Assembly (NCBI RefSeq): GCF_013167455.1
Contig: NZ_CP038328.1
Reading direction: 5' to 3' (one strand)
DNA length: 64,000 nt
Source of the DNA: Escherichia coli O157:H7
GTDB taxonomy: Bacteria; Pseudomonadota; Gammaproteobacteria; Enterobacterales; Enterobacteriaceae
Numbering within the stretch: position 1 is the stretch's first letter; the number at the start of each line of letters is the position of its first letter. A program made the position numbers. Of this stretch, positions 33,001-39,000 are shown piece after piece.

Positions 33001-36000
33001 TATTCTGCTTATGTTAACGTAGAAAGTGGAATGTTGAAAACGATAAAAGATCTGGTCTCAACCATTTCTAACCGTAGTTTTTAATTTTAATGGTTAATGA
33101 TATTTCTGCTAATAAGATACTGGTGTGGGCGGCTGTAGCTGCGGCAAACCATAAGCTTCCCAAATATGCGGAAGCTATCCTGAATGTATTCCCACAAATT
33201 ATACCTGATAAAAAAGATATCGCACATTTAGAATTTATTATCTTATTTGGATTAAATAGAAAAAATGATGCGGTAAAGGCTTTGGAGGACTGTATGGATG
33301 ATGAGACGAGTCAGTTATTGTACAGTTTGGTCCATGAGAATGGTAGTGGCTGGGTACGAGGATTTTAATTTATATTGATTTAAAAATCATTTTATTATTC
33401 GTTTTGATATATATGAGAGTTAGCCAAGCTTAGATATAAAGAGGCATAAATTATGCTTAATGGAATTAGTAACGCTGCTTCTACACTAGGGCGGCAGCTT
33501 GTAGGTATCGCAAGTCGAGTGAGCTCTGCGGGGGGAACTGGATTTTCTGTAGCCCCTCAGGCCGTGCGTCTTACTCCGGTGAAAGTTCATTCCCCTTTTT
33601 CTCCAGGCTCGTCGAATGTTAATGCGAGAACGATTTTTAATGTGAGCAGCCAGGTGACTTCATTTACTCCCTCTCGTCCGGCACCGCCGCCACCGACAAG
33701 TGGACAGGCATCCGGGGCATCCCGACCTTTACCGCCCATTGCACAGGCATTAAAAGAGCACTTGGCTGCCTATGAAAAATCGAAAGGTCCTGAGGCTTTA
33801 GGTTTTAAGCCCGCCCGTCAGGCACCGCCGCCACCGACAAGTGGACAGGCATCCGGGGCATCCCGACCTTTACCGCCCATTGCACAGGCATTAAAAGAGC
33901 ACTTGGCTGCCTATGAAAAATCGAAAGGTCCTGAGGCTTTAGGTTTTAAGCCCGCCCGTCAGGCACCGCCGCCACCGACAAGTGGACAGGCATCCGGGGC
34001 ATCCCGACCTTTACCGCCCATTGCACAGGCATTAAAAGAGCACTTGGCTGCCTATGAAAAATCGAAAGGTCCTGAGGCTTTAGGTTTTAAGCCCGCCCGT
34101 CAGGCACCGCCGCCACCGACAAGTGGACAGGCATCCGGGGCATCCCGACCTTTACCGCCCATTGCACAGGCATTAAAAGAGCACTTGGCTGCCTATGAAA
34201 AATCGAAAGGTCCTGAGGCTTTAGGTTTTAAGCCCGCCCGTCAGGCACCACCGCCACCGACAGGGCCTAGTGGACTACCGCCCCTTGCACAGGCATTAAA
34301 AGATCATTTAGCTGCCTATGAGCAATCGAAGAAAGGGTAACCAACTAATAAAAACCGATATCAAATTGTGTGGTAATAAATGTGATTAGTAATATCGGTT
34401 TTTATTGGAGGGGTAATAAATAATGTATTATTATACGGTGAAAGTGGAGAAAGGGACGTTTTGTTAAAAGCGCACAGAGCTTAAAAGTCTGTTCGCTATT
34501 GATTGTGATAATCTGAAAGGCAGTAAACTCAGGTATACTGGCAATAGCGGACACCACCATTTGTTCTTTTTTTACGCAGTTATCTGGTTATATTTTTCCT
34601 GAAGGCTACCAGGGAGATATTCCCCAGACGGGAGTGGCGGCGCTGATGGTTGTAGAAAATCTCAATGTATTTCCGTATTACTTAGATGGCTTCATCCCGG
34701 TTATTAAAACGATAGTTTCATTCTTCAGCGTTTACTATAAGTTTTTCATTGAGGTGTTGTCGTAACGGTTACCTTTACGCGGCATGGATGTTTTCAGACC
34801 AAACCGCTCCTGTATAGCCCGGTAATCGTGTGTGCAGTACTGCGAACCACGATTGGAGTGGTGGATTAGCCCGACTGGTGGGCGTTGCATTTCCCGGTGT
34901 TACCATACGTTTTTGCTGCCCACGTAGTTTCCTGTCCGTACCGATTTTGAGATTTTTCCTGATATCCTCAATGCCCCCTTGTATAACAAAGATACTGTTA
35001 AAAACCATTGTTATGTATTACCTTTTTCCCATTATGGGGTGCTAATATTTCAAGAGGAAATAATACCCCCTAAAGTATCCTCAAAAGCAACTTGATACAG
35101 GTTGAGTCGGTTGACCCCTGTACACAAAGAAAGCCTGATATATAAGGGATTAAAAGGGGTTTTGTTGGTAAGCGTACAGCGAGGGCCGTATTGACGGGGA
35201 TGTGTTATTCAGCTGGCAGTGCTATGCGCCACGGAAGCAGTTCGCTGACCCGGTTGACCGGCCAGTCTGCTATGACGCCAAGCACATGGCGAAGGTAGCT
35301 TTCTGGATCCACGTCATTCAGTTTGCACGTCCCGATCAGGCTGTACAGTGGCGCTCCCCGCTCACCACCATGATCAGAGCCGAAGAACAGGAAGTTTTTA
35401 CGACCCAGACTGACCGCCCGCAGGGCATTTTCAGCGATGTTGTTGTCGATTTCCACCCAGCCATCGTTCGCATAGTACGTCAGTGCCGGCCACTGGTTAA
35501 GTGCGTACGCGAACGCCTTCGCCAACTCTGAGTGTCGCGACAGGGTCTTCATCTTTTCACGCAACCAGCTTTCCAGGGATTTCAACAACGGTTTCGTTTT
35601 TCGCTGACGTTCAGCAAGCCGCTGCTCTGCCGGCATTCCCCTTATATCCGCCTCTATGGCGTACAACTGACCGATCTGCTCCAGGGCTTCTTCCGTCAGT
35701 GCTGACGGGATGCGGACGTGCACATCGTGGATCTTTCGGCGGGCATGAGCCCAGCAGGCAGCTTCCGTTATCCCACCATTGCGATACAGCTCGTTGAACC
35801 CGGCGTACGCATCCGCTTGCAGCACACCGCTGAAGCAGGCAAGATGAGTCTGCGGATGGATGCCTTTTCTGTCCGGGCTGTAAGCGAACCACACTGCAGG
35901 TGCCAACGCTGACCCTGCATTGCGGTCATCACGAACATACGCCCACAATCGCCCGGTCTTCGTCTTCTTATTACCCGGCAGCAGTACCTGGACCGGGGTA

Positions 36001-39000
36001 TCATCGGCATGGAGTTTGCCGTCAGTCATGACATAGCCATGAAGCGCCTCTTCCAGCGGAGACAGCAGCCGGCAGCATGCATCCACCCAGCCCGACAGCA
36101 GTGAACGCCTCAGCTCCACACCTTGCCGGCCGTATATTTCTGACTGGCGATACAGCGGGGTGTGCTCTGCATACTTCGAGGTCAGCACGCGGGCCAGCAG
36201 CCCCGGTCCGGCGATACCCCGCTCGATGGGCCGCGAAGGTGCAGGTGCCTGCACGATGGCATCGCACTGAGTACAGGCATGTTTTTCCCGTACCGTCCGG
36301 ATAACCCGGAAGGCGCTACGCATCAACTCCAGCTGTTCGGCGGTATCCTCGCCCAGATAGCTCAGTGAACCGCCGCAGTTCGGGCAGCACGGCGCCGCAG
36401 GCAACAGTCGCTTTTCGTCACGGGGTAGTGATTCAGGGAACGGCTTACGGGTGCGGGTCTGACGCAACGGACGCTGTACTGCCGGGTCATACACCCTACC
36501 AGTCAGCGTATCGCTCTCTTTCTGAAGCCGGTTCAGATCGGCTTCCATTTGTGCGATACGGCGGGAGACTTTTTCGGAACGACTGCCGAAGTTCATCCGG
36601 CGGAGTTTATCCAGCTGCGCCTGCAGATGGTCTATTTCGCGCTCCCGGTTGCTCAGCTTTTCCTGCAGGGCGTGGATCAGCGCTTCCTGTTCGGCCAGGC
36701 GCTGTTTCAGCAGGAAGATGTCGTCAGAAGAGATGTCGTTCATAAGCCCGTATTTTACCGGGCTTATTCTGTGACAACCAGGATAAAGAGATTTACAGCA
36801 TGGTCAGGGAGGTCAGCAGCCGCTTAGGCTGTCGCCAGTCGATACCTTCCAGCAGCATCGCCAGCTGCGCCTGCGTAAGGAACACTTTGCCATCACGGGC
36901 TGACGGCCAGGCGAAGCGCCCACGCTCCAGCCGTTTGGTCAGGAGGCACAGTCCGTCACCGGTGGACCACAGCAGTTTAACCTGACTGCCGCTGCGGCCC
37001 CGGAAAATGAAAACATGGCCGGACATGGGATCGTCTTTCAGCGCCGTTTGTACTTTCGCAGCCAGGCCGTTGAAGCCATTTCTCATATCGGTGATACCGG
37101 CAACCAGCCAAATTTTGGTCCCGGAAGGTAACGGGATCATCGCTTCAGTTCCTGTATCAGCAGAGTCAGGAGCTTTTCGCTGACATTGCCATTGAAGCGG
37201 AGCGTCCCGTGCCGGAACGTTACCTCACAGCTGATACTGAGGGTTTCCGGGTCCTCTGCGAGCGATTCTGGCTGTTCGGCAGCTGCATCGAGAGTCACAG
37301 GAAGTAGCTGGGGGCTCTCTGAAGAAGGTAATAGCAGCTTTCCCTCGCGCCATTGTTGTCGCCATTTGAACAACAGATTGGCGTTAATGCCATTTTCAAG
37401 AGCAAGTTTTGAGATGGATATCCCGGGTTCACAGGAGGCAGCAACGAGCTGCTGTTTAAATTCGGGAGGATAATTAGGGCAGCCTTTTCGCCTGCCGGGA
37501 GTCACATTTTTCTGCATATCTGATACTTTGGTTCCCACTACTTATTTGGTGGACACCACTTTGTCTAATTCGTCAGATTCTGACCAGACGGTTCAGGCTG
37601 TACGCTTACTTTTGTTGACGTCGGGAGAGTTCAGAAGAGGAAGTTTGGCGGAGATCACAGGAGTCGAATATGATTATTAATGCATTGATTTTAAATGATT
37701 AATGCGTGTTGGATAAATGATTGACCCCCATAATAACCCCCAAATGACTTTACATGAGGGAATGAGGCTAAAATACACAATTGAATCAATTCTTAGAGAT
37801 TTTTGTGAAGGTAACATTCCTAGGTAGTGTCTGGCAATAATATCATTAAGCCTGTCAACCAGCTCTGGCTTTCTGAATGTGATGTGTGCGGGCCCTTCTT
37901 AAAGTATTTACTTGTCTTCATAGCGCTCTTTACCCTGAACGGACTGTAGGTGGTCATCCAGATTAATGGTGATATTCCCTCGGTTGTTGGGGAGCGGTTT
38001 ACCGCTGAGCAGATGCAACATTCTTTCCAGGTCAGCTAAGCGATCTGCCTGCATTCCACTGATAAGATGAAATCTCCATCTGTCCCATCTCACCAAGTTG
38101 TTGACGATAATTTTACTGCCGAATTTACAGGGGGAATTGGTTTTGTAATTCCGTTCGGCCCTCTGAAGACGTTGATCACCCCACGCTCAAACACTTCATC
38201 CTTACTCTGGTGCAGTTGTTTGAATGCATTCATGATATTCGCCTCGCTGATTTCCGGAATATTATCGTACTCCAGTGAGCGGTACCATGTATCCTAGCCC
38301 TGTGCATCCATCAGACTCAGCATCCCGGAGCGTTGCATCAGGTCACGCCAGATTTCGCAGTCGAGGTTGCGGGTGATGGCTTTCATTGCGGTTTCAGGTT
38401 TCTCCATCAGCCAGCAGCCGCAGTGAAAATCCTGTTTCATCGCCCGGTCCAGGGCGGTTTTGCCGCCAATGTCTGCTGCTGTCAGGACTGAGATTTCTGC
38501 CAGTTGCCGGATAAGCGTTTCGGTTTGTTGCAGTGCTGCATTCCGTACCGTCACAACGTGTCGGATACTGGTGGAGCAGATAACGTCCGTATGCCCGGTG
38601 TCCACTTCCGGACGGGAGATTATGATGCCTGACATTATCGGTTTTCCTTTTGGTTTATAAACGAAAACGCCAGCCCTGTTCAGGCTGGCGTCAGTGGAAT
38701 GAAGTATGGTGAGTGAGACTCACCGGTTCTGTTGCAGAAGCTGCAGTTGGCGCAGGGTACGGACATCTTCCCTGACCTGTTCGATACAGGGCAACAATGC
38801 TGCCGAATCCGTTTTATCCTCATCGTTGTCGAAGATAATTCCGGATTCGCTGTCGATATTGTCCTGCAGCCACGCAATCAGAATATCCAGTGCTGCTTCC
38901 GGGGTTAATGATGTCATGTTGTTCCTAGTTACCAATTAAAAGTGGGTAAACCTGGCAGACATCCGGCACTGGCATCCAGATGAATGAGACTGACACCATA

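Follow-up and report, generated by a model that had tools for sequence, protein, structure and literature searches.

An ISEc8 element in a probable relic attachment junction beside the LEE island of Escherichia coli O157:H7

Introduction

Insertion sequences of the IS66 family generate an 8-bp target-site duplication, and under the ISfinder convention copies with at least 95% nucleotide identity are treated as isoforms. The terminal repeats of the family start with GTAAGCG. The described prototypes, IS679 and IS66, carry three genes in the order tnpA–tnpB–tnpC, with tnpB translationally coupled to tnpA (Han et al. 2001, J Bacteriol 183:4296, as cited in PMC3469429). Mobility of the IS66-family element ISEc8 in O157 is documented indirectly: it interrupts stx2a in O157 strain 9000 (PMC6776261), and eight of nine ISEc8 sites are common to strains Sakai and FRIK804 (PMC7430833).

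Here we analysed a 64,000-nucleotide stretch of E. coli O157:H7 DNA (the window) that holds the LEE island at selC, and within it an ISEc8 copy that lies in non-coding relic DNA, with a prophage remnant on one side and the LEE virulence island on the other. Perna et al. reportedly described in 1998 (Infect Immun 66:3810) the LEE together with '933L', a cryptic prophage of the P4 family, at selC.

Structure and identity of the element

The initial annotation had described a 2442-bp element with inverted termini, bracketed by a perfect 8-bp direct repeat, and had made its reading depend on these last two features, both of which held on precise alignment (Table 1). The sequence GTAAGCGTACAGC is read inward at both ISEc8 termini, with the first 13 positions matching perfectly and 22 of 30 matching overall. 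By chance, an element defined on other grounds would carry matching 8-mers exactly at its ends in about one of 65,536 trials, and TTTTGTTG has only four + strand occurrences in the whole 64 kb. ISEc8 is richer in GC (56.7%) than its flanks (42.5% and 47.4%), and the window holds a single copy of the element.

Table 1 Features of the ISEc8 insertion and its surroundings (window coordinates)
Feature	Position	Strand	Evidence
IS3-family transposase remnant (pseudogene), espF/arm' interval	34572..34887	-	annotation
arm' left part, LEE side, relic integrase-proximal att arm; continues through the duplication	35063..35159	.	with 37618-37668 aligns to 42601-42757
8-bp target-site duplication, left copy, TTTTGTTG	35160..35167	.	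natural empty sites have one copy
ISEc8 (IS66 family), 2442 bp, genes on minus strand	35168..37609	-	full-length 100% identity to RefSeq-annotated ISEc8
IRR, tnpC-distal end, starts GTAAGCGTACAGC	35168..35197	.	13/13 perfect, 22/30 matching vs other end
tnpC, IS66-family DDE transposase, 512 aa	35205..36743	-	NCBIfam NF033517, 458 bits (cut-off 180); WP_000998051.1
tnpB, IS66 accessory protein, 115 aa	36793..37140	-	NCBIfam NF033819, 120 bits (cut-off 50), profile 1-90/90; WP_000612591.1
tnpA, IS66 accessory protein, 126 aa	37137..37517	-	NCBIfam NF047595, 97.7 bits (cut-off 74); WP_001171554.1
IRL, tnpA-proximal end	37580..37609	.	compared with IRR
8-bp target-site duplication, right copy, TTTTGTTG	37610..37617	.	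exact repeat
arm' right 28 bp, ISEc8-to-core interval	37618..37645	.	alignment to selC arm
selC' core, 23-nt direct copy of selC 3' end, 1-nt deletion	37646..37668	.	vs selC 3' end 42734-42757
Tyrosine integrase, 933L-type prophage remnant	41357..42538	-	annotation WP_001219063.1
Paralogous arm, selC to 933L-type integrase; target-equivalent site reads CTTTGTTG	42601..42733	.	alignment to arm'
selC (tRNA-Sec)	42734..42828	-	ARAGORN; Rfam RF01852

Over its full length (2442 of 2442 bp) the element is 100% identical to copies annotated as ISEc8 in many O157:H7 RefSeq genomes, which carry approximately 10–15 copies per genome among the matches listed. The name ISEc8 is based on RefSeq/PGAP naming and on this 100% identity to copies so named, and the element is a member of ISEc8 and of the IS66 family, not a mere relative; the initial label 'ISEc8-like' had picked the right element but was too weak. 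Compared with the other O157:H7 copies, it has the same sequence, the same three proteins and the same 8-bp duplication, with no detectable difference, and its only locus-specific trait is its target, the relic att arm beside the LEE.

As initially proposed, the three IS66 reading frames are all open and full length. The genes tnpA and tnpB lie upstream of tnpC on one strand, with an ATGA in which the tnpA stop and the tnpB start overlap, 49 bp between tnpB and tnpC and 37 bp between the end of tnpC and the end of ISEc8. All three products, the transposase included, pass NCBIfam equivalog models, and TnpC shows the complete Pfam IS66 architecture (LZ_Tnp_IS66, zf-IS66, DDE_Tnp_IS66 and DDE_Tnp_IS66_C), with DDE_Tnp_IS66 (PF03050) aligned over positions 1–283 of 284 (E = 3e-106). 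The element thus combines the traits by which the IS66 family is recognized, namely a DDE transposase TnpC, upstream tnpA and tnpB that overlap, imperfect inverted repeats and an 8-bp duplication. It is a different family member from IS679 and the IS66 prototype, and its likeness to them lies in organisation and family traits: the same three-gene order with ATGA coupling, GTAAGCG-type ends and the 8-bp duplication. No Rfam matches were found inside or adjoining ISEc8.

The target is a probable relic attachment junction

The initial annotation had placed the insertion in an att-like arm and had proposed that excision restores a homologue of the arm next to selC. The target is indeed paralogous to that arm: once the element and one repeat copy are removed, the joined sequence matches the spacer between the integrase and selC (42601–42757) on both sides of the insertion point, with 83.5% identity in a 158-bp alignment (E = 1.5e-40). 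On its selC-facing side, ISEc8 lies 28 bp from selC', a 23-nt direct repeat of the selC 3' end that differs by a 1-nt indel. In natural variants the modules meet at this core: strain 155 and O145:H28 both part from the window directly past ...CACAGGAGTC, a pattern seen in 39 genomes. This divergence exactly at the selC-derived core, together with the tandem array of FDAARGOS_293, supports its reading as an attachment site. The selC-proximal copy of the repeat has its cognate integrase beside it. No integrase adjoins the distal, ISEc8-bearing copy, and a tblastn search of the window, including the LEE flank of the arm, found neither another integrase copy nor a remnant of one; we therefore term the distal copy a relic junction and not an active LEE attachment site. 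For the selC-proximal module the selC' core serves as attR, and for the LEE it is probably the core of a relic attL. It forms the relic attachment junction between the LEE and the 933L-type prophage remnant. The arm that adjoins it is probably a relic attL whose LEE-side integrase was lost. The IS3-family remnant, which is also found in O55:H7 and O145:H28, fills the position expected for that integrase.

This arrangement resembles tandem accretion at a tRNA gene in three respects: a full selC stands by the integrase, the far side of the proximal element bears part of the selC 3' end as a direct copy, and another paralogous integrase-proximal arm follows beyond that; natural variants of the locus carry one proximal module, another, or two. 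It differs in that the distal, LEE-side junction has no integrase and bears ISEc8.

Occupied and empty alleles

Both occupied and empty alleles exist at the LEE-side site. Among 5,426 complete E. coli genomes, where a site counted as occupied if the element was found with its left flank, with or without the right one, 295 were occupied and 14 empty, which answers the check for polymorphism among related strains that the initial annotation had suggested. The left junction is kept in 295 genomes and the right junction in 256 plus 39, again 295, as expected of the unrearranged insertion that had been proposed. In-silico excision of the element and one repeat copy gave a sequence 100% identical to real empty sites over 353 nt. 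Empty alleles that carry a single TTTTGTTG and match the excised sequence at 100% occur in O55:H7 CB9615, RM12579, DEC5D/E, TB182A and USDA5905; the same identity, again with one TTTTGTTG, was found for the empty alleles of O157 strains 493/89, PV15-279 and F3113, and that of O157 strain LSU61 is 99.7% identical. All listed genomes of the outgroup O55:H7 are empty, at 99.7–100% identity to the excised sequence, and O145:H28 carries a diverged homologue of the same junction that is also empty.

The site is unoccupied only in O55:H7 and in basal O157 strains (493/89, LSU61, PV15-279 and F3113), a lineage placement taken from strain names and from remarks in PMC10758439, not from a tree. Found in 295 complete genomes that together represent typical O157:H7, and missing from O55:H7 and the basal O157 strains, the insertion can be placed on the stem of typical O157:H7, later than the split from O55:H7, and is fixed rather than strain-specific. 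The initial description of the insertion as 'recent' therefore stands in the sense that it post-dates this split, but not in the sense of a strain-specific event, since 295 complete genomes have it in common.

The copy itself is ordinary and routinely annotated, and it has little significance by itself in a region that ranks among the most studied of E. coli O157:H7. The literature searched yielded no published account of this particular LEE-side insertion. Because this ISEc8 copy is absent from the O55:H7 ancestor, it is usable as a lineage marker, and a clean binary one: it is present in 295 of the 309 site-carrying genomes of the O55:H7/O157:H7 clade and could be scored with one PCR spanning 35160–37617.

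Origin of the insertion

We conclude that the locus almost certainly reflects a single transposition of ISEc8 into the relic att junction on the stem of typical O157:H7, followed by vertical, unrearranged inheritance. The transposition was presumably driven by the element's own TnpA, TnpB and TnpC machinery. ISEc8 would have entered once, into the non-coding relic junction at the LEE end nearest selC, and repair of a staggered target cut would have produced the 8-bp duplication TTTTGTTG. The target would be the former arm that linked the selC-derived att core to the LEE's own, since lost, integrase. A later selC-integrating element, represented by the 933L-type prophage remnant, would have displaced this junction to approximately 5 kb from selC and supplied its own paralogous arm, which would explain the 83.5% repeat at 42601–42757. 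The insertion would be younger than the separation from O55:H7 and from basal O157 and would have been inherited vertically and unrearranged thereafter.

Alternatively, the empty sites could be secondary: an insertion older than the clade could have left O55:H7 and the basal O157 strains through precise excision, or an empty allele could have replaced it. In favour of this, the empty allele is found in only 14 genomes against 295 occupied ones, but the O55:H7 outgroup is empty in every listed genome with practically the excised sequence, and the diverged junction homologue of O145:H28 is empty as well. Several independent precise excisions would be required, and precise excision that restores a single copy of the target-site duplication is rare for DDE insertion sequences. 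We regard secondary loss as very improbable. It is more improbable still, to the point of being negligible, that the 8-bp repeat arose by coincidence and that ISEc8 marks one end of something larger, either composite or rearranged. That multicopy ISEc8 could mediate rearrangements gives this idea a prior possibility only, whereas the window has one ISEc8 copy, both junctions are conserved in all 295 occupied genomes, and natural empty alleles join the flanks seamlessly with one TTTTGTTG; the empty-site alignment already refutes a composite origin.

A single transposition leaves the question of whether the insertion has since been co-opted. ISEc8 may not be neutral: it may stabilise the LEE by breaking its last att arm and separating arm from core, or tnpC read-through may run antisense into the IS3 remnant and espF and alter LEE4 output. 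Typical O157:H7 is fixed for the insertion, the att core is only 28 bp away, and ISEc8 converges on espF, with tnpC ending just short of the element's end and no terminator-like site found on the tnpC strand between tnpC and espF, in a promoter and terminator scan (34300–38200) that gave fewer hits than shuffled controls. In a young clonal lineage, however, any neutral marker can be expected to reach fixation. The LEE-side integrase was probably gone before the insertion, and the IS3 remnant stands in its place in the empty alleles of O55:H7 and O145:H28; with no integrase remnant found either, no excision function would have been left to disrupt. Core recombination, moreover, continued with ISEc8 in place, as seen in 39 genomes and in FDAARGOS_293. 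Co-option by either route is thus very unlikely, and a non-neutral effect of ISEc8 on the stability of the LEE or on its LEE4/espF end is equally unlikely; if real, it would add to the differences between typical O157:H7 and its ancestors. The single, vertically inherited transposition was probably neutral in function.

Module turnover at selC

ISEc8 provides a fixed landmark against which the states of selC can be told apart: the 933L-type remnant alone, the remnant with a P4-like satellite, and the satellite alone. An IS629 insertion or an IS-mediated deletion was considered for the shortfall at the right junction (256 against 295) and rejected; the right flank of strain 155 is the P4-like element exactly from the att core onwards. 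In 39 occupied genomes a P4-like satellite prophage replaces the 933L-type remnant, the two being exchanged at the selC-derived core. One genome, FDAARGOS_293, has both the 933L-type remnant and the P4-like satellite, in a three-element tandem array.

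Structure and identity of the ISEc8 copy

To delimit the element, we read both boundaries from the sequence: the left one runs ...AAAAGGGG TTTTGTTG and then GTAAGCGTACAGCGAGG..., and the right one ...GGCTGTACGCTTAC and then TTTTGTTG ACGTCGG.... The initial annotation had described a 2442-bp element with inverted termini inside a perfect direct repeat, and a script confirmed this, yielding identical flanking 8-mers, an intervening length of 2442 bp and terminal inverted repeats (13/13 perfect, 22/30 overall). Because TTTTGTTG occurs only four times on the plus strand of the 64-kb window (script count) and directly abuts both termini of an element that was delimited independently, we do not regard the duplication as a chance match. 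At 56.7% G+C the element is richer than the 1 kb on either side of it (42.5% and 47.4%).

The three long ORFs are all encoded on the minus strand and are full length, as had been claimed: TnpA, TnpB and the transposase each exceed the NCBIfam equivalog cut-offs (IS66 TnpA, IS66 TnpB and IS66 transposase), and TnpC has the complete Pfam architecture of LZ_Tnp_IS66, zf-IS66, DDE_Tnp_IS66 (positions 1-283/284) and DDE_Tnp_IS66_C. The tnpA stop and tnpB start overlap as ATGA, and 49 bp separate tnpB from tnpC. Translationally coupled gene organisation has been described for the IS66 family (Han et al. 2001, as summarised in PMC3469429), and the overlap and gene order agree with the organisation as that summary gives it. 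Every testable defining feature of the family was found. The family assignment thus stood on NCBIfam and Pfam evidence, but the qualifier 'ISEc8-like' proved too weak: with identity to RefSeq-annotated copies serving as a proxy for the ISfinder reference, annotated ISEc8 copies were identical, and on this comparison the element is ISEc8 itself. Among the genomes listed, each O157:H7 genome has approximately 10-15 places annotated as ISEc8 in RefSeq; the window holds only one.

Features at the selC end of the LEE (window positions; CbtA and YeeU positions were converted as TW14359 locus coordinates + 22367)
Feature	Position	Strand	Remark
espF	~33594-34340		locus coordinates: 86-24, 7428-8173; RM13514, 7880-8335; CB9615, 5580-6344
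IS3-family transposase pseudogene	34572-34887	-	between espF and relic att arm
Target-site duplication, left	35160-35167		TTTTGTTG
ISEc8	35168-37609	-	genes on minus strand
tnpC	35205-36743	-	512 aa
tnpB	36793-37140	-	115 aa
tnpA	37137-37517	-	126 aa
Target-site duplication, right	37610-37617		TTTTGTTG
selC' core	37646-37668		TGGCGGAGATCACAGGAGTCGAA
selC-proximal module	37646-42733
DUF4942 pseudogene	37677-38096	-	internal stop
CbtA-family toxin and YeeU-type antitoxin genes	39417-40045		toxin intact, antitoxin truncated
Rfam isrC match	41104-41226	-	150 bits, full length
Tyrosine integrase of prophage-like remnant	41357-42538		TW14359 annotation
selC	42734-42828	-

ISEc8 lies in a probable relic att arm beside the LEE

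According to the RefSeq annotation of the identical region of O157:H7 TW14359, the window is the LEE pathogenicity island inserted at selC, with the order, from the left, tir, cesT, eae ... espF, an IS3-family remnant, ISEc8, a prophage-like remnant, selC, and yicJ with the backbone. The degraded prophage-like remnant, which we take to be the '933L' cryptic prophage of Perna et al. 1998, holds a DUF4942 pseudogene, DUF957, DUF5983, a CbtA toxin, a truncated YeeU antitoxin and a tyrosine integrase.

We deleted 35168-37617 (the element and one duplication copy) in silico and compared the product with the remainder of the window. The single significant match joined 35063-35167 and 37618-37668 to 42601-42757, with 83.5% identity over 158 bp (E = 1.5e-40) and an alignment uninterrupted across the insertion point, so that excision restores a continuous sequence homologous to the selC-adjacent arm, as had been proposed. 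The right end of this repeat, the selC' core, is a copy of the selC 3' end with a 1-nt deletion, 28 bp from ISEc8; the rest, termed arm', matches the stretch that separates selC from the start of the integrase gene, where the site equivalent to the target reads CTTTGTTG.

On the minus strand the order is selC, arm, integrase, prophage remnant, selC' core, arm' (with ISEc8 inside), IS3 remnant and LEE, the pattern expected if a later element had integrated into a selC tRNA gene already bearing an island. In that case the selC' core would serve the newer element as its distal att site and, taken with arm', would represent what is left of the integrase-proximal junction of the older island, the LEE. 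A tblastn search found no integrase remnant on the LEE side, and we therefore call the junction a relic rather than a functional LEE att site. The IS3-family pseudogene occupies the expected place of the LEE's own integrase; since O55:H7 and O145:H28 have conserved it too, it is older than the ISEc8 insertion.

Occupied and empty alleles

Polymorphism among related strains, a check suggested in the initial annotation, was evident, with 295 occupied and 14 empty genomes. The locus with 800-bp flanks was found in 295 genomes (all O157:H7 or O157 among the matches listed), as was the left junction alone. The excised 353-nt sequence is intact, at 99.7-100% identity, in O55:H7 (CB9615, RM12579, USDA5905, DEC5A, DEC5B, DEC5D, DEC5E and TB182A), in O157 (493/89, LSU61, PV15-279 and F3113) and in two records without a stated serotype (2013C-4465 and FDAARGOS_946). 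Among these, 493/89 and LSU61 have been termed 'ancestral strains', and PV15-279 and F3113 outliers (PMC10758439). CB9615 has the gene order of the window without the IS, and its site, with a single TTTTGTTG, equals the in-silico excised sequence base for base.

The simplest reading of this distribution is one insertion event on the stem of typical O157:H7; judged from these alleles, it postdates the O55:H7/O157:H7 split and is fixed, without strain specificity. The description 'recent, unrearranged' accordingly holds for the intact duplication and for an origin after that split, but with fixation in 295 genomes 'recent' applies only in a relative sense. Annotations of the insertion exist in hundreds of public genomes.

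Insertion mechanism and consequence

The locus presents an intact IS66-family element with three genes, inverted ends, an 8-bp duplication and matching empty and occupied alleles. From what is established about DDE transposons and IS66 elements, TnpC would, together with TnpA and TnpB, have made a cut staggered by 8 bp at TTTTGTTG, inside an AT-rich non-coding stretch; the IS ends would have been joined to the cut target, and repair would have doubled the 8 bp. Mobility of ISEc8 in O157 has been documented: it interrupts stx2a in strain 9000 (PMC6776261), and 8 of 9 ISEc8 sites are common to Sakai and FRIK804 (PMC7430833).

Because the insertion disrupts no annotated gene (window-region annotation and CB9615) and the LEE-side integrase is already missing from empty alleles (O145:H28 and O55:H7 CB9615), a functional consequence is unlikely; an effect on LEE stability or espF-end transcription seems highly improbable. 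Promoter and terminator predictions over 34300-38200 were less frequent than in shuffled sequence and carried no usable signal.

Turnover of the selC-proximal module

The right junction (IS with 250-bp flank) was found in only 256 genomes, and the right flank at at least 99% identity in 267. The deficit relative to the left junction arises because 39 genomes carry a P4-like module in place of the remnant: the ISEc8/P4-like junction occurs in exactly 39 genomes (256 + 39 = 295). Strain 155 (NZ_CP018237.1) keeps ISEc8, both TTTTGTTG copies, 28 bp of arm' and the selC' core to ...CACAGGAGTC, and from the next base an 11-kb P4-like satellite prophage stands in for the 933L-type remnant, encoding a distinct integrase (WP_001218979.1), a DEAD/DEAH helicase, Psu, Ogr/Delta, Icd and a primase-helicase. 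O145:H28 RM13514 (NZ_CP006027.1) has the same P4-like module beside an arm' that is empty and 95% identical, and FDAARGOS_293 (NZ_CP022050.2) has both in tandem (LEE, ISEc8, 933L-type remnant, P4-like element, selC). These natural variants show the selC-derived core to be a genuine boundary between modules; they also place ISEc8 immediately beyond the unit that is exchanged, where it has not blocked turnover at the adjacent core. O157:H7 is polymorphic for the selC-proximal module, this window being among the 256 with the 933L-type remnant. Icd-like, Psu and DNA primase genes have been listed as specific to tir 255 A-allele strains (PMC10758439) and probably reflect the same P4-like element, so that the polymorphism is at least partly known.

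Within the remnant, the DUF4942 pseudogene directly adjoins the att core on its right side, and thousands of E. coli genomes have intact homologues (~84% identity) in other CP4-type islands. The YeeU-type antitoxin gene is N-terminally truncated by ISEc31, apparently leaving the CbtA toxin an orphan, and both genes are conserved in this state in CB9615. The strong match to isrC, a Salmonella Hfq-binding sRNA, falls within the 5' part of the ISEc31 (IS3-family) transposase region, and the family in Rfam may represent no more than sequence derived from an IS. At the LEE end, espF differs among strains: the annotation gives a frameshift in 86-24, a truncation in O145:H28 RM13514 and an extra 18 nt in CB9615, which may reflect repeat-number variation or assembly error in its proline-rich repeats.
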